A DNA stretch of 56,615 bases, the filler included, from Dimargaris cristalligena (lineage: Eukaryota), in assembly GCA_003614675.1 (NCBI GenBank). It is 3 parts of 3 records of this genome, joined end to end, with 100 filler letters (N's around TTAATTAATTAA, not from the genome) between each part and the next. Parts side by side here need not be neighbours in the genome. Positions count along the whole stretch, not along the records: positions 1 to 18,829 come from ML002752.1; positions 18,930 to 37,745 come from ML002753.1; 1 more part is not named here. One strand, 5' to 3'. Below the pieces are notes generated by a model that saw nothing but the letters and a program-made list of their open reading frames with translations, was not told the DNA's origin and searched no databases. Each line of letters begins with the position of its first letter. Positions within the stretch are counted from its first letter, which is position 1. Below are positions 6,587 through 35,250 of this stretch, piece by piece. Position numbers and translations under genes: made by a program.

Positions 6587-8475
6587 CTAAAATTCCTCCG
6601 GAACGTTCACTTGGCCCCGCAAAATGGCATGTTCGGCAATACTAAGTTTGCTGGGTAGCTGCCCCAGAGATTGCAAGTAGGCGCCCTGCCGGACATATCG
6701 GTGAAAATTAGGGTCATTCAGGTACGCATCAAAACCCCAGAACTCGGTATCGAATGTCTTGGGGGTCGTATCCACCGAAGGTTTTTGCTGGCCTGTACCA
6801 AATTCGGGAGTGACCACGGCTATTTCCATTTGGAATTTACCCTGGTCGTCGCTATCCGTGAGTCGCAAGTTCTGCAAATACAAATCCAATTTGCAATACA
6901 CGGATAACACCTCTTGTTTAAATCCTTCTTGGATAGCCAGTGCAGCGCAGCCCAGGGCCTTTTCCACGAACTCAGCGCCGCGAACGAAACCCTTATTTCG
7001 CATAAACTCGGCCAGGATACACTTGCTGGCGATGTCTTTAGTCTGCGGCTCTGCCCAAGGCATCCCAGGAAACAGGCCCGGCAGGCTTTCCAATAGGGCT
7101 ATATTTTGGCCCAGGGCAGCCAGCACGACCGCCAGCTGTCCCTCCATTGGGGTATAAATGGAGCGCTTTCGCCAATCGGGATCCTTACGCAGTAGCGCTA
7201 GATCATCCATGAATTGCTGTAGACGGTCGAACCGGTCGGTAGTAGCCAGGCGAGCCATGATCATCCCCGCGGTATTATGTAACAGTTCACTATAAAACAT
7301 GCTTATTCCATCCGCCTGGGCTTGGTCTGCCATGAATCGGAACATGGTTTGTAATACGTGGCTTAGTGGGCTGAACCCGGGCGAACGATCGCTGGGTTGG
7401 GAGGAGGAGGAGATAGCGGTGCTGGTGGTGGCCGGCATTTCCGAAACCTCGCTCATGAATCGGCGGCCAAGTGTTTCCATGGAAGGGTCCAGGAAATTTT
7501 TCAGAATCTCCACGGCACCCATACCGCGCGGCGGGTTGTCCACCAGGACTAGTAAGGGCAGGTCCGTGGCTAAATCCCGGGGGTCCATGGTTTTGGGATT
7601 GACAAACTGCCAGTTCTTTTTCTCATACAGTGGTTGGTTACCAGAATAGGTCAGAGCCCGATAGGCAGGAGTCAGCAGACTCGAATACATTACGACTTCT
7701 GCATTCAGAGCAGCTCTGTTATATACAGTCTGCCAGGTGCTGCACTGATAGATGACTGTGGTTAGTAATCCAAACGAAATCTGGTGGTGAAGTAACTGGT
7801 CCCAGCCTTGCAGTACCCGCTGCATATTATAGATGGAGTTCTGTTTGGCTGATGGGTTGGAAAGTGGTTTTGGTAAGGTAGGTTGCTTGTCGTTTACTTT
7901 TCCCGTGGGGTTGCTACCATCTTTAATCCACTCATTACCTTGACGAACCCAGTTGAATGGGACCTATGTAGTAAGGTGGAACGTGGAAGGAGGAGGTCAA
8001 AGGTCCGGAGATTAGTAAATTAGCCATAGGTTATCCAGGGAATGGTCGTAGTTAATGAGACTGGTCTTATGTATAATTGTACAATGGAATATGCAAATTG
8101 AGCTAGATTTGGACAAGCATGCGACAAAAAGAGGTCTGTAATGGCTAGAAGCACCACCGGTCAAGGTGTGGAGTGACATGGGCCACACTATTGTTCCTTC
8201 TTATCACTGAATTTCAAATTTACCTCGAATTTCTCCTTGGGATTATTGCCAGTAATTTCATGAAAACTTTTACTGGTACTCAATAGTTGATGACGAATTT
8301 GGGGATCGTAGGCCTTATCGATGATATTTTGAAATAGCTCCATGGGAAAAATGGCCTCATTTTGTTTTGAATTGGAGGTGTCCAAGGGGTTGGAGGCCAT
8401 GCCGAATTGTACACTGTGGTCCAAGGCAAGGCTAAGGGCGACCAGGCCGAGCGTGTTCCGACGGAGCGCCTGCAT
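6587..8475 (-). CDS. Putative secreted protein with N-terminal F-box-like motif (2 exons: 8475-8224, 7963-6587; 542 aa)
   Basis: A phase-0 intron at 7964-8223 (GAG|GTAAAT ... TACATAG|GTC) joins ORF 8188..8577 to ORF 6587..7825 in frame (..KEKFE|VPFNW..SIYNMQRV). N-terminus MQALRRNTLGLVALSLALDHSVQFGMAS is signal-peptide-like. IFPMELFQNIIDKAYDPQIRHQLLSTSKSFHEI resembles the F-box consensus. Confidence 0.75.
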
Positions 8476-8633
8476 GGCGAAGAGAGTGGAATTGGTGGAA
8501 AGGGTAAGAAAGAAAGAGAGAGAGAGAGAGGGAAAGGACAGGTTAAGTAATGTCCAATATTTTATTTTTGACTTCAATTGAAAATATACACATGAAAAGG
8601 ATTGGTGTACGAAAATAGGGGAAATGGCAAGTC

Positions 8634-8641
8634 TTTATATA
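8634..8641 (-). promoter_or_regulatory. TATA-like box (TATATAAA) upstream of the secreted F-box-like gene
   Basis: TATATAAA on the minus strand ~160 bp upstream of ATG 8475, followed by a pyrimidine-rich (CT)n leader. Confidence 0.4.
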
Positions 8642-10898
8642 TATGTGTGTGTACATTTACGGACTCTCAATTTGTCAACGTAGGTAAGCCAGCATGATAG
8701 TCGCTCTGAGGACCAAGAAAAAAAGGGCGAGGGGCCCCGATAAAATATATTAAACCGCGAATTCTATTCGCACTCTCGCCAACCCTAGCTACCACTAGCG
8801 CTGCAGCCGTTGTACAACCTCTGATGCCATTCTTGGTACTTTTTTGATGGAGGTAACTAGGGATGTGGTATGTGGCGCTCAGGCCCAATGGCTAGAGTTT
8901 ATTCGCGGATCACTTGTCACTACTATTCATCATCTCTTCAATTAGCCAGCGCGCCTGTTCACCCTCTCCCTCTCCCCTTTCTAGCCATTCTACCATTGGG
9001 GGGTACGCTGTCCCATCCGAGCCACCAACCATAATCGAGATGGGTTTACACAGGGCCCGGCTGTTCGTCGCATGGGCCCTGGTGGATAATCGCCGGTCGT
9101 ATCTAAGGGGGGGGGGGCTTCTCTTATCCCCCGACACCTACCCAATTGCCTTATCTGACATATGCTGCTGCTACCCTGGCAGCAATGTGTGATTTAATCC
9201 TGCCCAGTAACTATCCCGGGGCGAGTGACGAACAGGGCCAACTCATATGCAGGGATAGAATAGACACTTACCTATAGTGCAAACCTTCAACCGATAAAAA
9301 TCACCACCTTACTCTGGTTCAGCTGACTGTCCATAGAGGTTAGCATTCTAGGTGGCAGAACATAGCTACTTGTGGATATCTGTTTTTTACCTCCCTATTT
9401 CGCCCAACAGCCCCGTTATAGTCATGGACGGATGGAACAAGTATTAGTTAGTTATTTTGTAAAATATAAGCCGAGTAGAGCAGCAGAATCTTTGACGCTG
9501 AGCAAGGAATTTTAAATGTATATTGGATTATTATTATGAGACAGAGGGCTGGGGGGATACGTACCATTCTTCGCTTTACATTTCCTACGCCTCTCTACAG
9601 CCCTGGATTGAAACAGCGATAGTGTGCCGTTTGGGTGAAAAAGGTCGACAGCCATTACTTCGCAATTGAATATTTGGGAACGGGGCATTTCGCCAATATG
9701 GTGACCAGTGTAACAACCAGCTGAACGAAAGGGTATATACCAGTTGATTTCTATCAAAACCAACCGCACCCGCCATCTCCTTGTCCAGGGAAGTCACTTT
9801 TTCTTAGCCATGTCCTTTTCAAAAAGTAGGTGCGCTACGTCCCCCTATTGCCCTCTCTAGTTAATGCCATATGTGAGAGGGCTCAACATATATATATATA
9901 TATATATTAAATTAGGCATGCATGAAGGGGATGATAGGAGCGAAACTTAACTAGCCCAAGCCCGCCAATAAAGTTTTTATATAAGAGGCGATTTAAATCC
10001 GCCGTATAGTTAAAACTACATTTCTAGCCACATCTACTGGGATGTGCAATGGTAGAGGTTTTTATGGACAACCTGAAATAATAAGCGAGATCCTGTCAAT
10101 AAGAGATATGTATGCTTGGAAGTTAGCGAAGGGCACTCAGCGATATAGGTAAGTATAGTGAACAACTCGGGTGGACGATAGTCTGTCTGGCAAAAAAGGC
10201 CAACCCCGAATTCGACAACAACCATGGTGAATTAGGCTGATCCCTTTTGTTCATCGGGGAAGTATGTTTAGCACAATCGCCAGGCTAAACCCCCCACAGC
10301 AGCAACACCAACACTGGGCCAACTCTGTTCCTATTATCGCCGCTCCTTTTCCAAATGCACTCGCCAACGTGAAGCACCTTCTTTTGTAAAACGCCCCATT
10401 TTATTCCTTCATTTTGGAGTCATATCAGTTGCCTTATATGGCTGCGGAACTACTTGATGTACCCATCGAGTTCACGATAATTAAACTCGAGACCCGCGTA
10501 TCACGGCCAGGTGCAACTATTACCCTTGAGCTTAGGTTGCTCCATAACGGAGGCGAGAAATGTGGCTTATTTAGTAAGGCCACTTAGGAAAAAGAAATAA
10601 AGGGGAATTATATAGGGGGGGGGGCGAGGTTTGGTCAATGGCTTATTGTGCAATTGTGGACCACTCTACTCAACAGAGGCGGGGAAGCGAGAGTTATTAG
10701 TGTATTGATTGGGGGTATGAAGCGCAACTGATACCCCATTCCATACCATACATCAACAACTAGGCTGTGGGAGATTAGGTTGTCAATTGGCCTACTGTAT
10801 AATCAACTAAATGAGGGGCCATCGAGTATATATATATACATATGTTTTTATATCCCATAGGATTAATGAAATCGTCTGGAGTTCATTGAAAAAGCCAT

Positions 10899-11619
10899 TC
10901 CCATATCGGCATGGTCTAACCATCAGCGAGCATGGTCGTTTTTATAATGGCCTTAAGACCCCCATGTGCTATGGTAGATGGATCATTATCGGACAAATGT
11001 ATCAGTCGTAATGGAAAGGATTTAGGGGCCGTCTACATTGAGCGTACCGGCCAATCAGGTGCCCTACACGGTTAGGTGTTGCACCATGGCAAGCAACACA
11101 CAACTTCTTATATATAGATATAATTAAAAATAAGCCCTACTCTTGATATAGAAATTATATTACAGGAAGAGACAAATGTATTGGTATGGCTAAAGGGGCA
11201 CCCGCTAAGGCTAAGAGAAATGATAATCGTAGTATGTCGTTTTATATATATAAAAGACGGGGGATTAAGGACATTATAAAAACGACCATGCTCGCTGATG
11301 GTTAGACCATGCCGATATGGGAGATGGATCATTATCGGACAAATGTATCAGTCGTAATGGAAAGGATTTAGGGGCCGTCTACATTGAGCGTACCGGCCAA
11401 TCAGGTGCCCTACACGGTTAGGTGTTGCACCATGGCAAGCAACACACAACTTCTTATATATAGATATAATTAAAAATAAGCCCTACTCTTGATATAGAAA
11501 TTATATTACAGGAAGAGACAAATGTATTGGTATGGCTAAAGGGGCACCCGCTAAGGCTAAGAGAAATGATAATCGTAGTATGTCGTTTTATATATATAAA
11601 AGACGGGGGATTAAGGACA
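10899..11619. repeat. 298-bp exact direct duplication (10976-11273, 11322-11619) separated by an inverted 51-bp copy (11272-11322) of 10899-10949
   Basis: Both direct copies run AGATGGATCATTATCGGAC...GGGGATTAAGGACA. The spacer is the reverse complement of TCCCATATCGGCATGG...TTTATAATG. Confidence 0.95.
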
Positions 11620-11643
11620 GATAACAATTGGCCTAGACGGTTT

Positions 11644-13857
11644 CTATTCACAGTTGACGAGGTGTTCGATACTTAGACGTCGCCTCATGAATGGGGAGTC
11701 CCGGATCTTGCGAATTTCAGCTATGATGGTAGAGTTTACCATCCATACGTCACTGAAACTCGTCAGAATTTGCATAATTTCTTCGATGAAGCGCACAGCC
11801 GGTTGCCGTTCACCTTCCCGCACCACTGGGGATGAGTGGCCGCAGTCTAGGATATGGATTTGCTCTGTACACACAATGGCGGCCGAATACAAGGCCGAGA
11901 TAAACAGACCGGTATTGATAAACGCGGGTGGGGTGGCTAAATGCACGATGACCTCGTGAAGCCGGTCCGTGTAGAGCCAACACCGCTCGTGACACTCGCT
12001 TAACGTACGGCCCGTTGAGTCGCCAGCGGCCCGGAGGGCGCTATTCAACGCCGACCCGGGAAAGGGTTCGGAACTGTCCGGTGAATGTCCGTCAAAATGA
12101 TTAAGATAAATTGCCAACATGGCACACGTCACCCGGGCCTGGAAACATATGGTTTTTGCTTCGGCTGAAGCGGGGGGAACCGGGTGGGACTGGGGATTAA
12201 CTCTGTCCAAGTCGGACCAATGGGTAAAGTGGTTGTACCACTGGTCGAGCTCTCGATTAAGTCCGGGTAGAGCTTTAAGCCAAGCCGTAGGGTCGGAGGC
12301 TTGCCGAGCTCGAAGCCTGGCTACTTGATGCCCCAGAATAGTCACCTCGGCCCTGGCAACGATCGTCATATTCTTAATGCGCGCCTTATTGATAAGCGTT
12401 GGGTATAGCTGGCTAGTAAAAATGTCCGAATGGGGGGTGGCGAGCTCGGCATCCAATCGGGCTTCGGCGTCATGGTCAGAACAGGGCAGGTTGACAAAAC
12501 AATCGTCTAAATCGACCAGTGGCATGTGGCCAAATACTAGGGCGCTATTCATGTCCTTGTGAACGAAGGCCCACCACGCTACCCGGTAGTACTCGCGCAA
12601 AATCTCGTTTGATAAAGTGGGTGCGTCCAGTCCCGAATCCGGGTCGAGGGTGCGGTGGGCGGGCCGTGGGGGTGGATGGGGGTGGTCCATCAGATGGATC
12701 CGTGCTACTTGCTGCTTGCGCAAAACGACGGCAATTAGGGATTGGTGCAAGGAGAAGCGACCGAGGCCTAGGCTGGTCTCGGAAAGTATACCCAAGAGGG
12801 GTAGCATATCCGGATTCGAATCCTCCAAGCAAAAGGGGATCATGGAATGAAGCCGAGCGAGATATTGCAGACTCACCGCGTGGGCCGAAAGGTGTTTGAA
12901 GGCGGGGTGGTCGGAAAAAGGGGCTACGGCCAACATGGTAGCCAACTGGAAGGACTTGGGGATTAGTTGGTTATCCAGTCGAAATAATACCCGGGCGCTA
13001 TTCAAGGGGTTGCAGTTTTGGTAAATGAACGAACAGAAATTCGCGATGGAATGGCGCACTACACTAGAGTGGTACAGTAGGTCCGTGGGTACAACCAAGG
13101 AGCGGAGGCTTGTAATGCCAAGCCCACGGCCGGCGGGTTCATTAAACGAAGGGGCGGTCATCCCTTGATTACCCGTGGCCGAAAGTGGGTTAAAGCCCAC
13201 ATGGCCTTCGGGGGTTGGTGGTTGCTTCCCCATGGAGTTGAGCAGCCATTTCGAGGTTATGTGGTTCACATTATTACCCTCCGGGCCAGCTATGTCCGAG
13301 TATGACGTAGGCGTCGCAGTCAAAAGCATTGCTATTATATCATCTGTACCATCGCAGGATTCGGGACTGTTCATTAGAATACCGTCCAGGAGGGGCTGAG
13401 TGAAGAGGCCACCTATACCCAGACCGTCCAGGCCCGGAATATTTCCTGGGATATCCGGTAAAGTCGCTGATTCTGGAGTGAGATATCGGGATTCTGCTGG
13501 TTTTACTATCGTTGCGAGGGATAGGTCTTTCGGTTGGGAAATTGAAGTGGTCGTCGTGGGCGGGCTACTGGAGCCGGTAGGAGAAGTCGACGAGTAGACC
13601 AGGGCTGGACGGACCGGGACGAAATAGGCAGCATTATAGGGGTTTGAGACCAGGGTCTTGCGTAGACGAGCCGGGGTGAGCTGGTACTGGCATTCGACCT
13701 TCCATTGCTGACATGTCGTGCACTGGGGCACTAGTCGGTCGCAGCGGACCTTGCGTGTACGGCAGCTGAGGCAGTTAAAGCGGGAACGGTCGGAAGGAGG
13801 AGGAGGCCCCTCCAAAGGACCGGGGGGCAATGGTAGGCTAAGGGCAGCAGGTCCCAT
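11644..13857 (-). CDS. Zn(II)2Cys6 transcription factor, paralog 2 (737 aa from ATG 13857, intronless)
   Basis: CLSCRTRKVRCDRLVPQCTTCQQWKVEC cluster. Shares QLTPxRLRK, RLDNQL, YYRxxWWA, LNHFDGHS and RTLxECHERCWLY with paralogs 1 and 3. The ORF-track start at 13875 is TTG; the first ATG is 13857. Confidence 0.93.
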   Translation of the reverse strand: MGPAALSLPLPPGPLEGPPPPSDRSRFNCLSCRTRKVRCDRLVPQCTTCQQWKVECQYQLTPARLRKTLVSNPYNAAYFVPVRPALVYSSTSPTGSSSPPTTTTSISQPKDLSLATIVKPAESRYLTPESATLPDIPGNIPGLDGLGIGGLFTQPLLDGILMNSPESCDGTDDIIAMLLTATPTSYSDIAGPEGNNVNHITSKWLLNSMGKQPPTPEGHVGFNPLSATGNQGMTAPSFNEPAGRGLGITSLRSLVVPTDLLYHSSVVRHSIANFCSFIYQNCNPLNSARVLFRLDNQLIPKSFQLATMLAVAPFSDHPAFKHLSAHAVSLQYLARLHSMIPFCLEDSNPDMLPLLGILSETSLGLGRFSLHQSLIAVVLRKQQVARIHLMDHPHPPPRPAHRTLDPDSGLDAPTLSNEILREYYRVAWWAFVHKDMNSALVFGHMPLVDLDDCFVNLPCSDHDAEARLDAELATPHSDIFTSQLYPTLINKARIKNMTIVARAEVTILGHQVARLRARQASDPTAWLKALPGLNRELDQWYNHFTHWSDLDRVNPQSHPVPPASAEAKTICFQARVTCAMLAIYLNHFDGHSPDSSEPFPGSALNSALRAAGDSTGRTLSECHERCWLYTDRLHEVIVHLATPPAFINTGLFISALYSAAIVCTEQIHILDCGHSSPVVREGERQPAVRFIEEIMQILTSFSDVWMVNSTIIAEIRKIRDSPFMRRRLSIEHLVNCE

Positions 13858-15282
13858 GAACAAGGCACCCACCAATAAAGTGGCCGGGAGTAGTGTAAAT
13901 GAGAAGAGAAATAAGATGGTTGGAGGAAAGGGAATGGGGACAGTTGGAAAACATTAACTCCGGCGCAGGCCACCGCTCGAGGCCCACGGGTTCCACCAGG
14001 GTGGTTCAGGGTGGGAATACATCTCAAAAGGCGGGGGTTGTTTAAGGTGCGCCAGCCAAGCGGCTCTCGGCATGGTGGGCAATATTATCAATGAAGAACC
14101 CGAAAGGGGAAGCTGATAAACAATTCGCCGGAGGAGAAAAGTTGGGAAGGAGAAAAATGTACTGCCCCTCTAGTACTCTCCTCCCCTGCATATCACACCA
14201 CCCGCTGAATATAGTGAAAAGCCAGCATTAATCTGACCCTAAGCTGGGTGGCATAACGGGGCGGGCCTATGACCAAGTTACCAACGGTTCTGTAACGAAG
14301 GGCTGTGCGATTACCTTGATACGACCAACTATTAGGGGGATCCGATTTGCAGTGTAGTTTAGATAACCAAAATTCAATCAGATGGAGTGAGCAAGTCAAG
14401 GCCCCCCATAATCGGCAATACATGGGGGGGATGGGCGATTTCTCCTGGAAGAGCAGCATAACAGAAGACCACTTCGCTCTACTAATCAGGGGCATCTATT
14501 GTTACGAATGGTCTATGTCATGGCTCCTTTGGAGTGAAAGGGGTGCTGTCTCATCCTAGTTACCGGGCCGCAGTATTGTGTATTGAACAATGTGGGAATG
14601 GCCGACTTGGTGACATCAAGCTAACAGGCCATATACTATTCACAAGTGGCGGGTATTTGGGGTAGGGCATTCAATAAAGAGCTGGAATGGGTTCTCCGCC
14701 CCCCGGCATTGACGGAATGGTTGTCTTTACGGCTATTAAAAGTATTCGGTGGCGGATAATATAACCGACCAGCTCGAGAACACATCAGATATATGTCCCT
14801 TATCAAGCAGCACTATCACTTGCCCAATAAGACAGTAGTGTAGTGGGCCAATAATCAAATAGCCCTCCCATTGGTGATGTCGGTGGTGTGGAATGGGAAG
14901 AGGAAGTAGTAGTACACTACTGCCTCATCACTATTGTCCCCCCCATGCTTACCCACCCACACCACCCCACAGGGCAGGGTAGCTTCTTACCCTAAAATGA
15001 TTATCCTAGCCGTTTTTGTCTCGTTTGTCCCTTGGCTCTGCGCATGTTGTTTCCTCTACTCCAAGGCTTTTCTTTTTCGATAAACTGCAGCATTCTCCCT
15101 ACTTAGCCCTTTTATACCTGTCCGAAATGCCTGACCCTCGGCCAGCTGCCACTTTTGCCCTGAACCACTGTGTCCATTTCCACTGATAAGACTCTCGCCC
15201 ATTCCTTTTATTCTTCCGTTTCGTTTATATTCTTCTAAATTGTACATTGGCCCGGTTTGCCTAACACAGAGCCAGCTATCCC

Positions 15283-17613
15283 ATGAGGCCTGCCACTTCA
15301 AGCCACACGCCACTAACCCTTATTCCTGCCGCCCCCAAGCCCAACCCAGCCGCGGAGCGCTCCCGCTACTCGTGTCTCGGCTGTCGCAAACGTAAGGTCC
15401 GTTGCGACCGGCTACTGCCTCGCTGTCATACCTGCCAGCTATGGAATTCCGACTGTCGATACCAGCTTACGCCCGCTCGTCTCCGCAAGGCCCTGGCCCG
15501 GTTGCCCGGAAACAATAGCCCTAGTAGTGCTTCCGACGACTCCACGCCCGAAGCGTCGTCCCTTTCACCTACGTCGGTTCCACTTTCCCAACCAGTCCCC
15601 TGTGACGATGCGGTGGATACCCACTGGGAAACCCCCGCGCCTACCGATGAGGACGTATCCCCCTTGGACCCGAGTCAGGCTGTCGACCTACCACCGGCTG
15701 CATATATTGACTCGGCGAGGGACCAGCTCGGTTCAGACGGTCCCGTATATATACCCGTGGACTCGCTGTTGGATTTCTCTGCCAACGCTCTGGATTTCCT
15801 AGACTTCGATTTCGACTACAGTGTATCGCCGGGCGCTGTTCTGGACTCGTCATCCTCGACAGCAATATCCCCCTCCTCCACATTAGTCCCACCCGAATGG
15901 AATCTGCTGCCGAACTGGCTAGTGGCGGGTATGAAACAGCTCAACGTGAATAGTCCAGCGGAGGACACGCTCACCCAGCGGACCGCCCGGTCGATATTCA
16001 AGCTAATAGGCAATTCAACGACTTCCTCGTCCCCAAGTGATTCCTATTTTAGTCGCCCTTCGTCCATGGTTAACCTAGCCGCAAAAGACCATAGGCCAGA
16101 GAAAAATGACATCCCCTGGTACGCTCGATTGTCGGATTTCAGTGGGGACTCTTCCAGCTTCCGTTCACTATTTTCCCCCGTCGACCTACTGTTCCATTCC
16201 AGCGTGGTGCGCCACTCGATGGATGATTTTTACTCGCTAATGTACCGGGACTCCAACCCCCTGCACCGGCATCGGATCCTTTATCGGCTGGATAACCAAT
16301 TAGTCCCCGAAGCCTACCAGCTGGCCGCTATGATGACGGTGGCCCCCTTCTCCAACCATCCCGCCTTTGAACATTTATTGCCCCATATGATCAACGGCGA
16401 GTACCATTCACGGCTTATTGCTATGTTGCCGCATTGCCTGGCCGATCCTAACCCAGACATGCATTCGGTTTTGGGCATGCTGGCCGAGGCGACTCTAAGT
16501 CTGGGCCTTCTGTCCCTCCACCAAAGCATACTCGCCGCTTCCATCCGCAAGCAACATGGTATCCGCTCCTATCTGATTGATCACCCGAACCCACCCCCGC
16601 GACCGATTTGTCTTAACACGGGCCCCGATATTACAGTGGATGTACCTACCTTACGCAATGAATATTTACGGGTCTACTACCGGACTTCATGGTGGGCCCA
16701 CTTTGCTAAGGACATGGTGGCCGCACTAATCTTTGGCCAGAAACCGTTGATCGATATGGATACTTGCTATGTCAATCTGCCCTACTATGACCGGGATATC
16801 GAAACCCATCTAGAAGCCGAATTGGCGAACCCCGAGTCCGATGTATTCTCCGGTAAGGACTACCCGACGATGGTCAAGGACTCCCAAATCAAAAACACGG
16901 GGGTCATTGTCAATGCCGAAATATCTATTATCGGCCACCGAATCGCCCAACTCCGCGCGCGCCAGGCGAGGGATCCTGCGGCCTGGCTTCAAGCCCTGCC
17001 CCGGCTTAATAAGGAACTCGAGCAGTGGTATAATCGCTTCACTGAACTGAGTGAAAAAGACTGGCGTGATTCTCCCTATACATCCGCACTACCCTCCCAG
17101 AGTGAGGCCGAATCCTTCTGTAACCGGGTCCGAGTCATGTGTTCCATGCTGGCTATCTATCTCAATCATTTCGACGGCCACTCCCCGGACAACGCAACCG
17201 ATTCCTATCCCGGTGCGGCCCTGAACCAGGCCCTCTCAGCTGCCGGCGACTCCATGGGTCGCACCCTCGCGGAATGCCACGAACGGTGTTGGCTCTACAT
17301 TGTCCGGCTTCGGGAATTGATGATCCAGTCCTTTACGCCACCCGCTTTCATCAACAACTCCATGTTCACCTCCGCCCTGTATCCCGCCGCCATCGTGTGT
17401 AGCGAGCGGATCCACGGTATGGGGTCCGCCTACCCCGGGCCGGTGGACCCAGCCGACCAGAAATTGGCTACCCTGTTCATTGATGAAATTATCCAGGTAT
17501 TGTCGGGTATCGGTCGACTCTGGAATGTCAACCTTACTTTGGTTGAAGAGATCCAGAATATTCGGGATGCCCCCTTTTCCAGACGCAATTTAGGTTTAGC
17601 GCATCTTTTGTAG
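15283..17613 (+). CDS. Zn(II)2Cys6 transcription factor, paralog 3 (776 aa, intronless), divergent from paralog 2
   Basis: CLGCRKRKVRCDRLLPRCHTCQLWNSDC cluster, with the same conserved C-terminal blocks as paralogs 1 and 2. Confidence 0.93.
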   Translation: MRPATSSHTPLTLIPAAPKPNPAAERSRYSCLGCRKRKVRCDRLLPRCHTCQLWNSDCRYQLTPARLRKALARLPGNNSPSSASDDSTPEASSLSPTSVPLSQPVPCDDAVDTHWETPAPTDEDVSPLDPSQAVDLPPAAYIDSARDQLGSDGPVYIPVDSLLDFSANALDFLDFDFDYSVSPGAVLDSSSSTAISPSSTLVPPEWNLLPNWLVAGMKQLNVNSPAEDTLTQRTARSIFKLIGNSTTSSSPSDSYFSRPSSMVNLAAKDHRPEKNDIPWYARLSDFSGDSSSFRSLFSPVDLLFHSSVVRHSMDDFYSLMYRDSNPLHRHRILYRLDNQLVPEAYQLAAMMTVAPFSNHPAFEHLLPHMINGEYHSRLIAMLPHCLADPNPDMHSVLGMLAEATLSLGLLSLHQSILAASIRKQHGIRSYLIDHPNPPPRPICLNTGPDITVDVPTLRNEYLRVYYRTSWWAHFAKDMVAALIFGQKPLIDMDTCYVNLPYYDRDIETHLEAELANPESDVFSGKDYPTMVKDSQIKNTGVIVNAEISIIGHRIAQLRARQARDPAAWLQALPRLNKELEQWYNRFTELSEKDWRDSPYTSALPSQSEAESFCNRVRVMCSMLAIYLNHFDGHSPDNATDSYPGAALNQALSAAGDSMGRTLAECHERCWLYIVRLRELMIQSFTPPAFINNSMFTSALYPAAIVCSERIHGMGSAYPGPVDPADQKLATLFIDEIIQVLSGIGRLWNVNLTLVEEIQNIRDAPFSRRNLGLAHLL

Positions 17614-18663
17614 AGTATATAGAGGCGGTGGTCCCTAGTGTATTAGGTGTAGTATCTTCACAAGTCAGCGAGAGCCCGTCTACTTCGATTCATACTATTC
17701 GAACCAATCTTTATCGTTGCTTAGATTGTATGTATTTAAATAAATTGCTTCAAGTAGATAATCCCTCAGTAGATTGTTCATCTATTTAATTCAAGAATGT
17801 GGTAATCGGGTGCTTCGTTCAATGACCAGCTTACACTAACTATTAGCTATTCCATATACATAGATTTTTTTTCCGCTAGAAAAGCCTGGTAATTGGAATA
17901 CCGAATTAAAAAGACTCGGCGCAGTATTCATAGGAAGTCACCTACTCCTGTAAACTCTGGTCTGGTATTAGAGGGGTTAGCCACCGCGATAACTTGATTG
18001 ACACAGTATCCATGTGCTGAGATAGGTTGATACCTCTCATCCGTTATAATGTTTTTGTACTGACACCATTAATCATTACGCCCATCCATTGCCTTTAGTT
18101 TGATGTTTAATCATATTTATATATTGGCAATAACCACACAGTGTTTATTGAATTTTTCAAAAAGAATAGAAATGGAGATACATTGGTTGAGGCATACGGT
18201 GGCGAATAAATAGAGATACTACAATGGCATTCGACCGGAAATGATCAACAAAATTGATTATTGTACCTCAAGCCGACACCCAGTGCCGGGAGGACTAGTT
18301 AAGCCACAAATCAATCCACCCCAATACATAAAGTCGTAATTGTATAATACAAGTAAAAAATATGACTATAGAATACATGCTAATTAGATAGCCAGCTAAA
18401 GGTTGATAGTTCCGCCAGGGAAAAATAACCTAGATAGGTAGCAAAGTGTCCATAAAAAAGTGAAAAAAATAATAATCGGATGCCCATTGAATCGTCGAAC
18501 GGGCGAAAATGCCATCCAACAATCGACCGATACATTTTGAAGAAGTGTATCGAAAGCCTAGGGATCTGTCCTTTCAACTTTTTTTACACAAGTCCTTGCC
18601 CTTGTTTTGGTGTCTCTTAATAATCTGAGCTAAGTAGTCATCACCAGCGAACTGAGCTTCAGC

Positions 18664-18828
18664 TTAGGCAGCCACTGGTTGGACAACAGCGGGCTGGACT
18701 TCAGGTTGAGTTGCCAGAGTGGGGGAAGGGACGGGGGCGGGCAGAGCCGCTTGAACGGGGGCCGGAGTGAGAGGGGCCGCCGCTACGGCTCCGAACGTCT
18801 TGTGCTCGCCCTTGACAGCATCCGCATC
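18664..18828 (-). CDS. 3' fragment of a gene truncated by the contig end (Ala/Pro/Val-rich C-terminus)
   Basis: Open frame from the contig edge, DADAVKGEHKTFGAVAAAPLTPAPVQAALPAPVPSPTLATQPEVQPAVVQPVAA*, GC-rich and followed by AT-rich 3' sequence. Confidence 0.55.
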   Translation of the reverse strand, partial: DADAVKGEHKTFGAVAAAPLTPAPVQAALPAPVPSPTLATQPEVQPAVVQPVAA

Positions 18829-26108: not shown

Positions 26109-27461
26109 CTAGTTTTGAAGGTATTCGTAGAGTCGGAGCAGGTTGCGCTGAAGCATGGCCACCGTTACCTTACCGACCGACGGCACGTAGATGGAGGCCT
26201 TTTGCTTGACATCATCCTCGAAGTTCTTGAATGTGGAAAAGTTAATGGCCACCACTCCGTCCTTCAGCAAGCGGGTGGGCAGTTTGTACTGGGCGACGGG
26301 TACACCGGTAATCACCACATCCGAAAGGGGCACGCACTCCTCCAGTCGTTGCTGGGTTTCAAACACTTCGTGTTTTTTGAGTTGGATACCTTCACCGCGG
26401 TGGAATTCCAGGACGTTGTGGATATCGATGGAGTAGACCTTGGCGCCGTCGTTGGCCAGAAGAGCCGCTAGGGGACGGCCCACCACTTCACTTCGGTTGA
26501 TGATCGTGATGGTGCGTCCGTGGAGGCGGTTGCCATACGGGAGAATTTTGTTGTAGACTCCAACGTGCTCCAGGACCTGCAAGGGAAACGTATAGGGCAG
26601 TACATTGAACGTACATGGGGGATGAGTCGATACAAGGTAAGAATACGCCCATTGCGGGAGGCCACCAACAGTCCCGACTACCACTGGCAATAGTACTATT
26701 TACATAATTCGGTATGATGAAGCTGAGCAAATGGGACCCCGGTTTTAGATTATTACCTTCACAACGGCCAACGGAGTGCAGGGAATAATGCACTTCCGGG
26801 ACTCGGCCTCGTCCAGGTACCGAACGTTGTGGTACATGTTGTAACAGTAGATATGGCACAGTCCCTCGACGTCCTTTTGGGGGCTCACCACATTCTGGAT
26901 GTACTGATCCTGGCGGTCGCCGAAGACGGGGTAGTAGACCAGAATGCCATGAACAGAGGGGTCCTCGTTGGCTTCAACCACCTTGTTTTCGAGCAGGTTA
27001 CGGTCCACCTGGCGAAGCTCAAACTCCACCCTCGTTTCGGCACAGGTTTTAGCGGTCCATTCGGCATACTTGGCCGCGGCCGGATCGCTGTTGGCCAAAA
27101 AACCCACCAGCTTGGGGTGCAGACCGTCGACTTCGATGGCCTTTTTGAGCTGCTCCCTATTAGGTGGAAAATTATTGATCAAAAAGTGGGGTGGATAGTA
27201 GTCACAATTAATACGGGTGGGCTATTTAGCAGGGTCGAGCCTAGTTGCGTTGGCCCGTTGGGACTATCGCTTGGTCCCTAGGTCAAAGTTGGGTCTATAT
27301 TCAAAAACTATTGCTATGCAGCCTAATAGGAGTGTAACCGCCGGAGACAGAACGAGCTGCCGACCATGTGAACCCTAGTCTGTGCATATATACATGGGTG
27401 GGGGGGTTACCTACACGAAGGGCTTGGCAATTTCGGAGGCAAGTACAGTTTTTCCGGGCAT
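26109..27461 (-). CDS. MTD1: NAD-dependent methylenetetrahydrofolate dehydrogenase (exons 27461-27415, 27156-26757, 26576-26109; 304 aa)
   Basis: Motifs LVGFLANSDPAA, KDVEGL, PCTPLAVVK, INRSEVVGRPLAALLANDGA, DVVITGVP and VGKVTVAML match yeast Mtd1 as I recall it. GT-AG introns keep the frame. Confidence 0.95.
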
Positions 27462-28699
27462 GGTGGGCGGTCAAGGGTAGTTAGAAAGGGGGGTGGATGA
27501 ATGGGTTGAGGGAGAATCGGGAAAGAAGCTAGCAGTGTGCGGCTTTGTCTAGGGTCAACCAGTAGGTTCGTAGTGCTCGCTAGCCAAGAAAGGTGGACAA
27601 ATATGCTTATTGCAACAGGGGTATACAGGTGGGTAGCACAGAAGAGAGAGAGGGGTGTCTGGGAATGCTCTTTCCTCAGCAGAAGGGTTCTAATAGATAC
27701 AGCTGGTGGCGAAGAGGCGATCTCTCTCTCTCTCTCTCTCTCTCTTGCATACTAGGGCAAGTGTGTCCATCCATTGCCTCTCACCGATACTGCTTTGTAA
27801 AAAAACCAACCGAGGCTGCTTAACTAGGAACGGACCTATCAGCAAAAGACCCATTTATCATACTTCGCCGTGGTTGGCCAGCAATTTTTATCCACTGCCC
27901 TTTCCATGCACATGTTGTTTGGTTTGGCTTGTTTGGGTTGGTTCCCAACCCCAATTATACCGTCTCCCCCAATTCCCCGAAAATATGGGGCAATCAGCTA
28001 ATATCTAGCGGTCTAAACATTTAGTGTGGTGGATGGGGTGATTCTCTTGGATTATTATTAGCGTAGAGGTCATTATATTTAGTTGTATTCTGCTAGGGAT
28101 TGCAGCTGTCAACCGAGGAGGCAGCGCTTATTAGATCTTATTGGGGAATCTCTATTTTACATACCGAGATTGAAGATTTCTAGCAGAACCACCGAAATGA
28201 ATACTAGGATGCGGTTGGTTCGGATCGAACTGGAGTCTAGCTGAAAAAAATTGGTTGTTGCATCAGGTGTTGCTAATAAATAGCATAATTCGGGCTTAAG
28301 TATACCCCACCCGTTACTGTAGATCATTTTAATCAGCACTAGTGCATAGTAGCAGCATTAGCATCCAATACCTCTGTGCCCAGAATAAGCATGCAATACC
28401 CTCGAATTCTCGCACTAGTCCCATGGTAGGTGTATCCAAGGCCCTTTTTAGCTATTACAGGAGGATCAGCTCTACTGAACATGGCCTAGAAAAGCAAAGA
28501 ATTGATTCGCATCCAGACTATGTTGCTTATTAGCTGGCCATTAATCACAAATAAGCAATATTCTTATAAGGTTTATAACTTCGATGTACCATCTTGTAGC
28601 AATCAGATGGCCATTTAGAGGGCAAGTAAGAGACAACAAGGTATATTATGTTTTTTAAAGCCCCCATGCTTCTCTCGTTCACTCTCTCTAGCAAGCTCG

Positions 28700-31600
28700 T
28701 CAAGTTTGGGCCAGAATCACATGTCCCAAGAGATTATACGCCGCGGGTAAACAAGTCATGGCCAAGGGGCCTAGCAATAGACCATGGGGACCAAAAGCCC
28801 AGAGTCCCAGAAGGATGCTAAGGGCGGCGAAGAAAGGGTTGGTGTCAGGGATCGCGGCGTAGAATACGGGATCCACGAACCAACCGATGGCGACGTGAGC
28901 GCCCAGCAGGGTGATGGCATTTAGCAGTTGGCCCTGGGCCAGGAGCCATAGCGTAGGCGGGACAGCGATGCACCAGGGAGAAACCATGGGTACTACCGCG
29001 ATGACGCCTGATACGAGGGCGCACGTATACCGCAGGGTATCGATGCCCCAGTAGCGGAACGTCACCCACGTCCAACCGATATGGAACAGTCCCATTTGAA
29101 GGGAACATAGAAGAATACCGCCGATACTCCGTTCGAGGGCGCGGCGAATCTGTTGTTCACGGTCCACAAATACCAGAACCCGCCCAAGAGAGTGTAGCAC
29201 CGACTGCTCCTGCACTACCAGAGAATAGAGGGTAAAGAAGAAGAGGAGGAGTTGGAAAAGGACATCAAACCCTACCGTGAAAATATGCAACAGGGTTAAC
29301 AAACTCAGACTAAGGGCCCGGAGGGCTTCGTTCCCCAATGCGGCTAGTTGGGCCAGAGTGGCCGCCCGGGCGGCCTCAATGCCCAGGTGGAGGGCTCGGT
29401 AGCGTTCACTGACCTGGGTGGCTAGGTAGTGGCCCAACTCTTGGGTCGCCCGCCAGTAGTGCACGGGGTATAACCAGTAGGTCCAGTCACTACGGAGCAG
29501 GGTTAACTTGAATTGGCCCAAGTGGTGTAATGGATCCGGTGGAGGAGGGCATAATAATTTGGCGCATTCCGAAATGGCGGCAGTGGGAGTGCCAAATGGG
29601 GCGTCCGAATGTGGGGTACATATCGCACAAGACGGGGGAGCCGCCGTGGTGGACGCACCCGTGGGATTGGCCGTGGTATCACCGTCTAACGAATCCCGGG
29701 CATTGCTCAACCGAGGAACGGCCGGTAGGTTAATCGGGGTAAATTTCTGGCCCAACGCAGCAGGTTCACCACCCCCCCCCTCCTCCTCCAGGACGAGAAT
29801 GGGCCGCTCCAAGAGTGGATGGTTTATTCTTGCCACCAATGATAGAGCCAAGATGTTTTAGGGCCATAATATGACTTTGGCTGTAATCCCGGTAGGGCTT
29901 AGATTGCTCAGCATCGGTTACGGGAACCAGTGGGTCTGTTGACGATAGGGGGGACGAGGCCCAGGGCGCCCGACCGGCATTCAAAATGATGGTATTATCG
30001 AAGGTCTCCCCTTTGAAGGCCAGGTATTGCTGCCGGAATCGCTCATAGAGGGTGGCGGCAGTGAGGTTAGAATCGGGGTAGTATTCCACCAATTTGGTAT
30101 TGACCCAAGTCGATAGCTCGCCCTGCACCGCGATGGATAGCGTAATGAGATGTCGGCTTAAAGTTTCGGAGACCCCCGTAAAATTGTTATTGCCCGATAA
30201 CCAGGGATGGGTGGAGGCTACCGAATCAGCGCCTCCAAAACCTCCCCCCACTGCCAACGAATTACCACCGCTGTTTACCCGGGCCTCGAGAGCACTGATT
30301 TCGGTCATGAAATTGTAGGAATCATCCAGGAACTGGGCCGTTTCTTCAGCGGTTTTGTAAAGTAGATAACCCATGATAACTACCGTGGCCGTCGTCATGC
30401 CACAGATAAGAAACGTCGTGACAATCTCATTGAGATTGGCGATTACAGTAGATTTAACATAGCGATTGCAGTATTTTGTAAACAGGTAGATAGAGTGCCC
30501 TACCAGGCCCACAGCCAGACTGCATTGGCAAAGTAGGGAGTAGGGGATACCCAAGACGAGTGCACCCAGTCGAATCAGGGCAGATCCCAAAGAAGCGAAA
30601 AGGGAGCGCGAAGTCGGTTCTGAGGTCTGAGGCTCCGTTGGATCATTCAACACGGCTGATTCAGGGATTTCGGGATTTTCGGGGTTTTGCTGAAGCACCG
30701 GGGTTTGGGTGTCCGGGATGTCTGTAGTGTCAGAGAGGAGTGGCGACGGGAAGGGAGATGGACTGCTCATTACGCCAGTCATGGCCCGTGGGCGGCGGTA
30801 GGCCTTAATACGGCGGGCGCTCCGGCAACTGTCATCGGAAAAAAAGGCACTCTCGTCATCACTCATAGCCGAAGTGGACGGAGGTTCCGGTGGAAGTACC
30901 GGGGACTTCTCCGGACTGGACTGGCATGTCAAGCAAACCGATGACGGGGCTAATCCGGGTATGGCCCTTTGGCGACGAACCACCCTTAGACACCCACGGA
31001 GGGACCATGATCCCGCCTGGGACAGCCGGGTCTGCATGTGGGCAATATGGGACCGAAGCATATACCCGATAAAATGGTAGGTGGAGTGCATGACCAATAC
31101 CAGGCAAAGCCCCATGAAGACCATCTGCAATTGCGTGAGGGTGACAAGGGACCGACTGAGTATGTCGTACGCGATGGTGAATATACAAAGGCGGAAGACT
31201 AAGCTAATCCACCACCATGACTCGCCCCAACTACCATCATGTATATCCTGGGGCCAAGTGTCGGAGATGGGAGTGCTGGCAGTAAAATTTGAGTTACTGG
31301 GCGCAGTGTGGGTCGCCCCTGCGGTGCCGGCTTTGGGAAACAATCGCTGGGGACCACGGGGGAAGGGCGAGCCGGTGGATCGGAACTGATCCCCGAATGT
31401 AAATGGGGGGATATTAGGGGTGCGAAAAATAATAGGGGAAATCCGGTCCAAGAACCGCCGTTTAACGCTGTAAAGTCCCTTGGAATGGGAGTCCGCCAAG
31501 TAGGACGAGTTTCGCATGGGGGTGTGCGGAGTTGCAAAGGGGTGGGGACTGTGTGTGGCTAGGTTCTGACCTGGAGTACCGCTAAGCTTGGACCGGTTCA

Positions 31601-33057
31601 TCAGAGGGGTTTGGTGTCGAAACGTCGTGGCAGTATTGGCGAGAGGGGCAGAGGGGGTGCTGCTACTCAGTCGGGGACTGTTATTATTGGCCACAAGGGA
31701 ATTGGAGTGGAGATGGCGCGGTGGGCCCCTGGTGGACCGAGAGAGTGTTCCCGGTAGGTGACTGGATCCCAATGTAGTGGAAGCCGTTGGAGTAGCACCC
31801 ACGGCGAATTCGATTTTACCGACTATGGCGGGCCGACTGGGCGGGATACTGGGTGTTGTTAATAACTCGTCGATTGATGGAGTGGGTCTTTCGGTGATGG
31901 TATCCTGTATTTTCCGAGATGGGGTCTCCTCCATCAGGGAGGCCGTGGTAGGGCCCCCTTTGAATTGGAAGGGTGGTGGTTGTGAGGCTGGAGTAGCCGA
32001 ATCTAACTGAAAATCGCCTTGTTGAGTAGGGCTCATACTGCTAAAGTAGCCGTCCTCACTCCCCGCATCCAACTCGCTTTCCTCGATATCAGTACTGTCC
32101 GGATGGGGTTGCGGGGTCGGGGAGCCCCCAAAGGACTGGGCGATGGGGGATGGACCATTCGCATGGGCGGCATTAAACCGAGGTAAATTCTCCTCTTGGA
32201 CCACTGGGTTTTCCTTACGCTTGGTCGGCCCGGATTTTGCCCAGGCGGTAGGTGAAGCCTTATCAGTGGGTGGTGGCCGGCACTGGCATCGGGCATTGAC
32301 CGGTTTCTTGGCGGCCTCCTCATCTGATACGGTAGGAGGAAGTCCAGCGGACTCGGCTAGCCCACGGATCAACTCCATGTATTCGTGGGCTACCGCAACG
32401 AGCAATTCATACACTGTCTGACCAAGTAGAGTCGTGAGAATGAAATGTAATTGCTTGGTGACTAGCCAGGGGCCAATGGAGGCGTCAGTCGCCGCCAATT
32501 CCTCCCGAAGGTAGGCGACGATATGCTTTTTGAGGGCGTGCATAGGCACGGATAGGGCAGCCGCCCAAAATAGAGCGGAGAAATAGGGCTGGAGTCTGTG
32601 GGTGTATGGTTATGGTCAATTCCGCCCATAGAATGGAATAGAATCGGAATGGAGTTAAATATGGGCTTAGTTATCAAAACTCACTGCTATAGCGGTCAGC
32701 CAGTGGCGGTGGAGTTAAATGATGAATGATAGTGGAGTCCCGCAAGCATGTGGGTATTATTTATACCGTGGTCACTGTAAAGCCTCACTGTTTAGGGAAC
32801 ACACCAGAGCGTACATTGCGGGGAGAAGGGAGTACTTACAGGACATAATTGAGCCAAACGGCAATGAGTACGGCCAGACCCACAACATTGACAATGAAGT
32901 GGAGGACGGCGATTTTAAGCTGCTCCCGGTCTACGAGCGGGTGATTCAAAAGCAGGGCTCGGGTCGTGGGGCTGTTGGCGTTGAGTCCAAGGCCTGGGTA
33001 CGATTGCTTGAGTGGGGTGGGCGGAAGTTTGGCCGAGGCCAAAGGAGTGGTCTTCAT
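28700..33057 (-). CDS. TMEM245-like / AI-2E (UPF0118) family multi-pass membrane protein; exon 33057-32840, exon 32595-28700 with an apparent 1-nt frameshift at 29772-29780 (~1370 aa if corrected)
   Basis: The spliced N-terminus ..WLNYVLLQPYFSALFWAAALSVPMHALK and C-terminus SILLGLWAFGPHGLLLGPL resemble TMEM245/AI-2E. Intron CT|GTAAGT..CACAG|A. ORFs 29766..32549 and 28700..29851 fuse if one G is removed from a G9 run. Confidence 0.8.
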
Positions 33058-34536
33058 GGCTGGTTCATAGACTTGAGCGGGAAGTGTTAAAAAGGTATGC
33101 AGGGCTAAATAAGAAAGATGTCGTGGAAAGGGCAATGGGAACTTCGGAGTGAGAAATGCGCAATCGGGACTTGGGGTTTGGTAGGAAAGGAAATTAGGCT
33201 AAAAACTCCGCGGGAAAGTAGGGAATGTCAAGTACATGCGGAACCAAGAAAAACTTAGAATAAGATAAAATACGAGGAACAGTAAAACTCCCGACAACTG
33301 TCAGTATAGATTGATAAGCAGACAGTAAAGTACCGCGGTATTACATATATAGGGAGAGGGTTTATCTCATAAAACTGTTAAATCCCTCTAAACATTTCCT
33401 ACTAGCAGGTCTACTATTCACTCTAACCTTGCATCAACCTACTCATTGATTAACAATTAGACCACTGTTCGTCTACAGCAATGGTAGTTCGCAAAACCCT
33501 TACTTGTTGGGGAGGACATGGGTTATAAAGACGACCAGGTTCATAGTGACCGCCATTACCTGTTTAAATGCCCTAAAGGTATCCTTCTATATCCGTAGAA
33601 CTGAGTAGATTGGGGCGAAGGGGCACAGTACTTCTGTGCGTAGCGAGCCCCCTTGAGTCAGCGTATCCCAATGATCAATTGGTCCAACTAAATCAGGGCA
33701 TAATGAGCCCCTTCTGTACTAACAGAATTGGCACACAATTTATGTTCTGAACCACTATTATTGAAACACAACACCAACAACCCATTGACTTCCTATTCAT
33801 GTGTCTTCGCATGGGCAGTGATGGGAAACTAAACAGTGGAATGCGCACAAAGTAAATCAGTAAATCCCAACTATGCTACAAATATTAGTGGCAATATTTT
33901 ACTTTGGACGAGCCCAGAGAGGGCAGAAAAGCGCAGCTGTTATTCCATAAAGTACCAGCCAAGTCGGAGAGCTTTATTCATATATATATAACTAGCCCCG
34001 GAATGTATCAATGTCCCGCCCTTATCACCCCGTCCTGGTACGTCTTCACTAACTCTTTAACCGGCCTCTAAAAATAAAATAAGATCCAGTAAAAGGCACC
34101 GAACTGTAAAAAGGAAGTGTCAATTGGCAAATCGAAGCCTTAACCAAAACCAAATTCGAAAGGAAATAAAGATTTCCCAATGGAGTGCTCACCATTTTAC
34201 AGTGTGGTTGTAATCCATCTTAGGCTGATAGGGTTTACCTATACATTCCCCAAGATAATAAGACCAGTATACATGGATTGTATTCTCATAAAATAATATG
34301 GCAAATGAAGATAGGAGGTCTAGGTCCCCTTTTGGATGTAGGCATATGCCATCATGTCCTTTATTCGACGAAATGGGTCAGAAAAAATGAGTTTAATAAA
34401 AGGGAAGAGATCGGGGGAATCAATGATCTTATGGCAATGTCTCCGTTCAAATATACTATACCAATGTCAGTAGGTGAGAATGTCAGAGAATGGGGCGGGT
34501 CAGAGTTCAACCAAATTAACCCGCTGGTGATTGGAA

Positions 34537-35250
34537 TCATCCATTGGTAGAGGGCCCTTTGGCACCTTGTTTATGACACGAATTTCTCTCATGGACTGTC
34601 CGGTTATCTGGACGGTTAAATTTCCTACCACACCGTTTACAGGCGAACGGCTTTGCATTTACGTGTATATTCATATGTCTTTGGAGGTGATCCCGGCGGA
34701 TGAATGATTTAGAGCATTTTGAACAACTAAATTTTGTCTCCTTACAATCCTTGCCCCGATATACCCGGCTGCTTTTGGGTACCTGCGGTTGTTTCACGTT
34801 GGTGTTGTGTAGATTTATTGGCACCTGGATGGAGAACTGGTTCGCTAGAGGGGGGAGGCTACCACTTCTTGAGCCGGAACTACTAACCTCATTAAAGGGG
34901 CTGGACCCTGTAGACTCGGAGCCTGGGGTGGACTGGTCAATGATGGTCGGTTGTTCATTAGCTTGAGCATATCCAATGCCCTCATTGTTCAAGGGGAATC
35001 CGAGACTGGCATAGTGGTTCATAAACTCTTCACCATCGAGCTGACCGATATACGCTAGATACTGCACCATTGACCAAGTCTGGAAAAAAGGATCCTTGGC
35101 TGGATTCAAACCTTCTTCCTCAAAACCGCCATCGGGGTTGTTGGCATCAAGTATGTCGTTGAGATGATTGAGACGGTAATCTTGCTTGGAGGCCCAGCTG
35201 GCAGCGAGTGAGCCCAGTAAAAAAAGACAAACGGCTCCAACGAAACGCAT
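34537..35250 (-). CDS. Signal-peptide-bearing protein with two C-terminal C2H2-type zinc fingers (237 aa)
   Basis: N-terminus MRFVGAVCLFLLGSLAASWAS. Fingers FSCSKCSKSFIRRDHLQRHMNIH and FACKRCGRKFNRPDNRTVHERNSC are joined by the linker VNAKP. Start context ACAATG. Confidence 0.88.
   Translation of the reverse strand: MRFVGAVCLFLLGSLAASWASKQDYRLNHLNDILDANNPDGGFEEEGLNPAKDPFFQTWSMVQYLAYIGQLDGEEFMNHYASLGFPLNNEGIGYAQANEQPTIIDQSTPGSESTGSSPFNEVSSSGSRSGSLPPLANQFSIQVPINLHNTNVKQPQVPKSSRVYRGKDCKETKFSCSKCSKSFIRRDHLQRHMNIHVNAKPFACKRCGRKFNRPDNRTVHERNSCHKQGAKGPSTNG

Follow-up and report, generated by a model that had tools for sequence, protein, structure and literature searches.

Predicted signal peptides joined to F-box-like and C2H2 modules in two genes of Dimargaris cristalligena: candidates for host-delivered proteins of a mycoparasite

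Two genes on unlinked contigs

The window analysed here, a stretch of 56,615 nucleotides, consists of three contigs (1-18829, 18930-37745, and 37846-56615) with runs of N between them (18830-18929 and 37746-37845). Protein names assign it to Dimargaris cristalligena, and a passage of PMC9866270 describes the Dimargaritales as fungal parasites that use an appressorium and a haustorium; the haustorial mycoparasite that the first-pass annotation had proposed as the source was thereby borne out. Two minus-strand genes are the subject of this study. Gene 1, on the first contig, and gene 2, on the second, each join a predicted N-terminal signal peptide to a module of intracellular type, an F-box-like motif in gene 1 and a pair of C2H2 zinc fingers in gene 2. 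The two genes had been claimed to be unlinked, and the N-run linkers do separate their contigs. The features of gene 1 are:

8224..8475, minus strand: exon 1, 84 codons, ATG at 8475, ending ...KEKFE; holds the signal-peptide-like start and the F-box-like motif
8395..8475, minus strand: signal-peptide-like segment, about amino acids 1-27; two Arg, an uncharged 11-residue core, and small residues before S28
8224..8352, minus strand: F-box-like motif, amino acids 42-84, FPMEL ... L..SK; aligns with LPxE[IL] of 13 paralogues
7964..8223, minus strand: intron, GT (8223)...AG (7965-7964), phase 0, 260 nt
6587..7963, minus strand: exon 2, 458 codons plus stop; conserved domain modelled as all-helical, C-terminus ...VPEEF
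8637..8643, minus strand: TATA-like word; an upstream ATG at 8593 sits between the word and the start codon

The features of gene 2 are:

34537..35250, minus strand: coding sequence, single exon, 237 codons plus stop (34537-34539), ATG at 35250
35191..35250, minus strand: predicted signal peptide, amino acids 1-20; MR, a hydrophobic core, and SWA, then S21 (SKQ)
34573..34731, minus strand: two tandem C2H2 fingers, amino acids 174-226; ligands C176, C179, H192, H196 / C204, C207, H220, H226
35463..35469, minus strand: TATA-like word, TATAAAT, about 215 nt upstream of the ATG

Gene 1 is BJ085DRAFT_28390 (P0047), a product of 542 amino acids read on the minus strand from 8475 to 6590, with the stop codon at 6589-6587 and one intron. 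Exon 1 was 100% identical to residues 1-85 of P0047 in tblastn, and the joined exons reproduced P0047 exactly. Paralogues aligned up to about 7846, covering the W..LLHHQ motif. Two other models were rejected. The H4R33_005787 model (428 amino acids) splices out 114 codons (7640-7963) that hold this family-conserved W..LLHHQ. The other, with a 25-nt micro-exon and a second intron (tactaac...cag), was set aside because the stretch encodes W..LLHHQ and the two-exon model equals P0047. Many H4R33 models of the paralogues lack an N-terminal exon that the BJ085 models contain.

Both proteins begin with a signal-peptide-like segment. The Kyte-Doolittle 10-residue maximum (KD10) was 2.56 at residue 9 for gene 1 and 2.93 at residue 3 for gene 2. 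On a heuristic reading, the starts have the n-h-c layout of a Sec-type signal, with a basic start, an uncharged core within 7-15 residues, and small residues at -3/-1; the cleavage site of gene 1, before S28, was read by eye. The same n-h-c layout is seen in a predicted wall protein of glycosylphosphatidylinositol (GPI) type at 20898-21557 of the window. The signal peptides of the first-pass annotation gained support from the paralogues, in which the signal-peptide-like starts of both genes are retained. Between gene 1 and its paralogue P0006, the first 33 amino acids are 57.6% identical and the body 33.9%.

The gene 1 family

A phmmer search with the body of gene 1 (388 residues) against 1.84 billion representative sequences returned 26 proteins at E ≤ 1e-3, of which 17 reached E ≤ 1e-10 and 2 reached E ≤ 1e-30. 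All 26 were looked up and belong to D. cristalligena, and the search returned no relative from any other organism. This outcome points the way that the first-pass annotation's check, an enrichment relative to saprotrophs, would require. Gene 1 is therefore not the orphan that it had been called; it has 26 relatives, all of the same species. P0020 and P0023 are one locus (111/112 identical), which gives 25 loci, five of them known from fragments only. The earlier step from two genes in 56 kb to a large class was an invalid extrapolation; what can be demonstrated is about 25 + 2 loci.

For each of the 20 usable loci, the longer of two assemblies' models was taken. A signal-peptide-like start was present in 17 loci, the LPxE motif in 14, and both in 12. 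Sixteen of the 17 counted starts had a KD10 of at least 1.79; P0024 (1.46) was counted by reading, and P0014 (KD10 1.50) was not counted, as an Arg breaks its core. The motif pattern [LIMF][PS]xE found 13 loci, and P0040, whose model begins at the motif, was added. The hydrophobic cores of the family are 10-13 residues long, with Lys or Arg before them and small residues after them (SAP, ATP, VSA). Read from the sequences, these features point to a cleaved signal more than to a membrane anchor. The hydrophobic start recurs across loci that are only 20-35% identical overall, and loci without it in the H4R33 models gain it in the BJ085 models. The mature parts contain 0-1.2% Cys, which fits a reducing compartment as their destination.

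In the family alignment, the signal is followed by a variable linker rich in Ser, Thr, Pro, and Gln, by L..LP.E[IL]...I and then L..SK, and by W..LLHHQ. Further blocks are NP.FQ..AWRFVNP...LPLLALVD, MARLATT.RF, and RLA[IV].LAA, and the last are C.L...MR..GL..GA.FL, L.LTD..QMGV, and a terminal [VI]P.[DE]F in many members. The looser form [VIL]P.[DEQY]F closes at least 11 of the 25 loci (PEEF, PPDF, PSDF, PEYF, PLQF, PDDF; 6590-6604 in gene 1), and such a conserved C-terminal tail suggests a docking or sorting signal.

The first-pass annotation had assigned an F-box to gene 1. An F-box-like motif does lie in exon 1, where the FPMEL...L..SK stretch (FPMEL...SKSF) occupies residues 43-70, and several weak leads point the same way. 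Three of 22 paralogues had Pfam F-box-like matches (E 0.0068, 0.13, and 0.18), all located on the aligned motif, and UniRef labels five loci ‘F-box domain-containing protein’. In the ESM Atlas, the top feature match of gene 1 amino acids 30-110 was an F-box cluster (0.93), with F-box clusters in lower rows too, and 7 of the 10 structure rows named F-box clusters or receptors. The AlphaFold model of the paralogue P0011 has short helices at 96-105, 109-118, and 120-128, directly after the motif.

The same model (mean predicted local distance difference test score 74, predicted template modelling score (pTM) 0.73) is disordered over residues 1-80 and all-helical beyond. Foldseek found no match to it in the PDB at E ≤ 1e-3. 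In VIA-align against 48,161 chains, designed helical repeats scored highest (Z 7.0), and no chain reached 8; Z values of about 7 are common for helical proteins. As modelled, the large domain would be all-helical and without a clear solved relative, and we do not claim that its fold is new. Pfam scans found no leucine-rich repeat (LRR) family in gene 1 or in any of the 22 paralogues, and an NCBIfam scan gave nothing meaningful.

Some further observations concern the family as a whole. P0042 (BJ085DRAFT_36318) carries a C-terminal cytochrome P450 fragment (Pfam p450, E 1.8e-7, residues 622-683) and is probably a merged gene model. P0023 and P0028 share one BJ085 contig of 33984 bases, and the locus tags of P0020 and P0046 are consecutive (H4R33_004153, _004154); part of the family is therefore probably arranged in tandem. 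Strain-to-strain protein differences numbered 0-3 in 15 of 18 pairs and 11-20 in the other 3, counts that are confounded by differing gene models, and for this reason we do not argue diversifying selection from them.

Gene 2, its paralogue, and the surroundings of both genes

The order of elements in gene 2 is signal, conserved block (NNPDGGFEE, AKDPFFQTW), Ser-rich middle, and two tandem fingers. Pfam zf-C2H2 (PF00096) scored 36.2 bits against a cut-off of 25.2 (E 6.2e-9), and both fingers have C-x2-C-x12-H-x3-5-H spacing. A phmmer search of the PDB matched 168 finger chains in all, among them Zif268 (E 4.1e-17) and ZNF568 (E 4.4e-39), and the Atlas features gave C2H2 clusters at 0.96. With this Pfam score above the cut-off and the n-h-c start, the signal peptide and fingers claimed earlier for gene 2 were both upheld. 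The C-terminal two-finger layout may resemble that of fungal Msn2/Mig1-type factors, a likeness that plays no part in the argument.

Among 5.8 billion clusters, the sole relative of gene 2 with 130-415 residues at E ≤ 1e-3 was BJ085DRAFT_30773 (P0003), which is 54% identical over 237/237 residues and collinear with one 1-residue gap. P0003 keeps the first Met, a near-identical hydrophobic core, and both fingers, and no internal Met is common to the two. No longer protein sharing the finger region was found, in a search that is weak evidence on this point. The gene 2 locus is present in sequencing runs of two studies (word shares 0.99-1.00 and 0.90); BJ085DRAFT_30773 is therefore a paralogue from the same genome, not a diverged orthologue. 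The exact gene 2 sequence is absent from a collection of 15 billion proteins, so no public annotation calls this gene. In run X5, a contig of 15,487 bases covers 19948-35420 and differs by 60 substitutions and 15 gap letters; its four listed indels all lie outside gene 2. A stop codon in gene 2 of the X5 strain is possible, as 40 of 84 substitutions are listed.

The missing annotation would be explained if gene 2 were a decaying duplicate of BJ085DRAFT_30773 that yields no product. The absence of the exact sequence from the protein collection is in keeping with decay, as is the lack of RNA among the sequencing runs listed for the locus. We nevertheless regard decay as very improbable, since the 237-codon frame is open from end to end and collinear with its paralogue, the gene retains every zinc ligand as well as the signal peptide, and no indel is listed in it in the run of the second study.

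A second explanation concerns both genes. They might encode ordinary intracellular regulators of the parasite, an expanded set of F-box adaptors and a small transcription factor, whose hydrophobic N-termini are either untranslated, with a downstream start, or serve as membrane or organelle tethers. The in-frame Met 26 and the upstream ATG at 8593 of gene 1 agree with such a view, and so do the three usable models and several H4R33 models that lack a hydrophobic start; cleavage, too, is a reading from the sequence. Against this stand the recurrence of the start in 17 of 20 loci of such low overall identity, its gain in BJ085 models at loci startless in H4R33, and the better conservation of the start than of the body between gene 1 and P0006. 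For gene 2, the first Met and core are conserved in P0003 with no shared internal Met, and no ATG lies between the TATA word and the start codon. The short cores after Lys or Arg would in any case put the remainder of the protein in the lumen. We therefore consider intracellular regulators quite unlikely.

TATA-type promoters had been reported for both genes. The words are present upstream of each (8643 and 35469), but TATAWAW occurs in the window at 1.56 per kb per strand, so that chance alone will often place a TATA word within about 250 nt of a start, and such words are not specific to these genes. A second shared feature had been a miniature inverted-repeat transposable element (MITE), of which the window holds four copies:

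5749..5892, no strand assigned: repeat copy 1, 144 bp, 0.7 kb from the 3' end of gene 1
36440..36581, no strand assigned: repeat copy 2, 142 bp, 1.19 kb upstream of the gene 2 ATG
47134..47275 and 47274..47415, no strand assigned: repeat copies 3 and 4, in tandem on contig 3, between the ESF1-like and WAC/DDT open reading frames (ORFs)

The repeat has several traits of a MITE, being short (142-144 bp), non-coding, and multi-copy with defined ends, and other contigs of the genome resemble the window over 36440-36581 alone, with divergence setting in exactly at both ends. Its inverted ends are imperfect (22/30, 20/28, 12/14, and 11/14), with scores at or below the maximum of 500 shuffles, and no target-site duplication was found in the flanks of the copies. 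A copy does lie within about 1.2 kb of each gene, as claimed, but further copies lie beside housekeeping genes. As the tandem pair sits between housekeeping genes, the repeat is no marker of effector-like genes. The ‘gene-sparse’ setting also held in part; the flanks of the two genes are 1-3 kb, but the difference is only relative, as spacing on contig 3 is 0.2-1.5 kb.

The ORFs of contig 3 are of housekeeping type (DMAP1/SWC4, ARL1, ESF1, and a WAC/DDT/WSD gene), and those of contig 2 include an MTD1-type dehydrogenase and an AI-2E-type transporter. Among the ORFs of the 18.8-kb contig 1 are three Zn2Cys6 factors, which flank gene 1 at 3182-5512 (minus strand), 11647-13953 (minus strand), and 15265-17610 (plus strand). 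The first two are clearly paralogous, with their N-terminal cluster and Fungal_trans domains alike. The 3.2-kb gap on the upstream side of gene 1 contains 1.9 copies, 99% identical, of a 346-bp unit (10899-11619), with 64-nt inverted arms (10899-10962 / 11259-11322) that are 95% complementary.

On contig 2, the AI-2E-transporter-like gene (28703-32609, minus strand) falls into two ORFs, 28703-29857 and 29769-32609, which overlap but are read in different frames. A single base at 29772, inside the overlap, is missing from run X5, and instead of an intron, the cause of the split may be a strain difference or an error in the assembly. At the ends of this contig (18930-19557 and 37142-37745), the summed depths of run X5 contigs were 7272 and 51192, against about 178 in the interior; a depth of 40 to nearly 300 times the interior came with many loose ends, and contig 2 breaks at high-copy repeats. 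The wall-protein-like ORF mentioned above (20898-21557, minus strand) encodes 220 amino acids with a canonical signal peptide and matches no Pfam family. Its Asp/Lys-rich block is encoded by a 24-nt tandem repeat (21294-21346); the product also has a hydrophobic C-terminal tail and an extended region rich in Ser/Thr, and it looks like a GPI-anchored wall or mucin-type protein.

Delivery to a host fungus and its meaning

We consider the chances about even that both genes are real and that their products, each a signal peptide with an intracellular-type module, are delivered into the host fungus; the rival explanations together keep about half of the probability. Directed into the secretory pathway by a cleavable N-terminal signal peptide, both proteins would leave the parasite at the haustorium and then be taken up into the host. 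Inside it, members of the F-box-like family would stand in as substrate adaptors of the host Skp1-cullin ligase or sequester Skp1 as sponges, and the finger proteins would move into the host nucleus to bind promoters. Because of their signal peptide, the proteins would stay out of the parasite's own cytosol.

The argument for delivery runs as follows. A short core after Lys or Arg should leave the remainder of each protein in the lumen or outside the cell, where no job is known for an F-box adaptor or a DNA-binding finger. An intracellular module without a job outside makes export, then action in the host cytoplasm, the most economical reading. Its grounds are the gene models, domain content, family size, and species restriction, which were observed; secretion, cleavage, uptake, and Skp1 or DNA binding, and hence host delivery of both products, are what we infer from them.

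Several results weigh against this reading. The signal-peptide calls combine hydropathy with a reading of the n-h-c layout and are heuristic only. Three usable models (P0043, P0040, and P0014) have no signal-peptide-like start and six have no motif, and a start at the second in-frame Met of gene 1, residue 26, would drop the signal. The species restriction may be a sampling effect that depends on how far other Dimargaritales proteomes are represented in the searched libraries. Most of the contrary results bear on the F-box. Gene 1 has no Pfam F-box match (PF00646/PF12937) even at E up to 10, 19 of the 22 paralogues have no match either, and the best paralogue reached 16.6 bits against a cut-off of 24.3. 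The top Atlas match shares just 115 of 256 features, and the structure rows were all ‘under the bar’ (template modelling scores 0.45-0.51). Searches of all PDB sequences with family profiles returned weak matches (2 and 13), without an F-box protein among them. The isolated motif folds as a two-helix hairpin, not as three helices, with a pTM of 0.33, and this fold had no Foldseek match. The F-box-like motif and its weak leads stand, while Pfam scores fall below the cut-offs and the PDB profiles and Foldseek are unsupportive. On balance, we lean towards a true, divergent F-box in the gene 1 family.

The proteins might also be secreted and remain outside cells, with a role in the wall, the haustorial matrix, or the medium. 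In that case, LPxE would belong to a helical secreted domain, and the fingers of gene 2 would bind a target other than host DNA or be a relic. The signal-peptide evidence is equally good for this explanation, which also draws on the failure of the F-box in every threshold-based test and on a large domain without recognised fold (no Foldseek match at E ≤ 1e-3; best VIA Z 7.0). With 0-1.2% Cys, however, there is no sign of disulfide-rich stabilisation, and the F-box leads recur independently in sub-threshold Pfam matches, the Atlas, and UniRef names. Zinc fingers are not expected to serve outside cells, and in gene 2 and its paralogue all eight zinc ligands are kept, with a strong match to DNA-binding fingers. 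Action outside cells is thus somewhat unlikely, although it retains an appreciable share of the probability.

If host delivery holds, a wider proposal is possible, though on the whole doubtful. The loci would form the first recognisable host-delivered effector repertoire in fungus-on-fungus biotrophy, with about 25 F-box-like adaptors and a two-finger C2H2 pair. In such a repertoire, the new helical domain would bind targets and so load host proteins onto the host Skp1-cullin ligase, and the secreted two-finger pair would rewire transcription from inside host nuclei. Uptake or docking could be signalled by the C-terminal [VI]P.[DE]F tail or by the conserved block that follows the gene 2 signal.

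Comparable proteins are known from other parasites. The F-box effectors SSGP-71 of the Hessian fly and RipG/GALA of Ralstonia bind host Skp1-like proteins, according to a passage of PMC4617103. Like them, the gene 1 family is expanded and predicted to be exported, with an N-terminal F-box (here F-box-like) before a further domain. SSGP-71 and GALA are thought to hijack the host Skp1-cullin-F-box (SCF) ligase via Skp1, which by analogy may apply to the gene 1 family. They have an LRR target-binding domain, whereas the gene 1 family has instead a domain modelled as all-helical; in addition, its motif falls below the Pfam cut-offs, and producer and presumed host are both fungi. No sequence kinship between them was found, as 26/26 relatives of gene 1 are from D. 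cristalligena. Compared with canonical F-box proteins (PF00646, PF12937), the gene 1 family has the same LPxE[IL] and then L..SK-type positions, N-terminal to a larger domain. Canonical members, however, are cytosolic or nuclear and lack a signal peptide, whereas the gene 1 family has a signal-peptide-like start in 17 of 20 loci and scores below the cut-offs.

For gene 2, the nearest comparison is with Magnaporthe oryzae. MoHTR1 and MoHTR2 are secreted C2H2 effectors that reach rice nuclei, and the same study counts 20 secreted candidates that have DNA-binding domains, of C2H2 type in half of the cases (PMC7672089). MoHTR3 is another small secreted C2H2 nuclear effector of this fungus (PMC10189765). 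Gene 2 resembles all three in being small and lineage-restricted and in having a predicted signal peptide and a C2H2 module. It differs in its two tandem C-terminal fingers, its conserved block after the signal, and a presumed host that is a fungus, not a plant. No homology with MoHTR proteins was detected, the only relative of gene 2 at E ≤ 1e-3 being its paralogue.

The design is known from other parasites; the novelty lies in the gene 1 family, in its helical domain that is not of LRR type, and in a setting where one fungus parasitises another. A literature search returned no paper joining Dimargaris with an F-box, nor one joining a haustorial mycoparasite with an effector. In its main text, the genome paper makes no mention of secreted, secretome, effector, signal peptide, or F-box (PMC6784888), and a zygomycete secretome paper, likewise in its main text, makes none of Dimargaris, F-box, or zinc finger (PMC9391592). 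Proteins of this kind are absent from the main text of PMC9866270 too. The gene 1 family seems not to be in print, although supplements could list such proteins.

Host-entering effectors are well studied in parasites of plants and animals and, to our knowledge, almost unknown in haustorial mycoparasitic fungi. A fungal parasite and its fungal host share their SCF and transcription machinery, so a signal peptide would explain how the parasite avoids harming itself. Judged by their sequences, the products of gene 1 and gene 2 are good candidates for host-delivered proteins, and both gene sets offer concrete, clonable candidates for asking whether a mycoparasite reprograms its fungal host from within.

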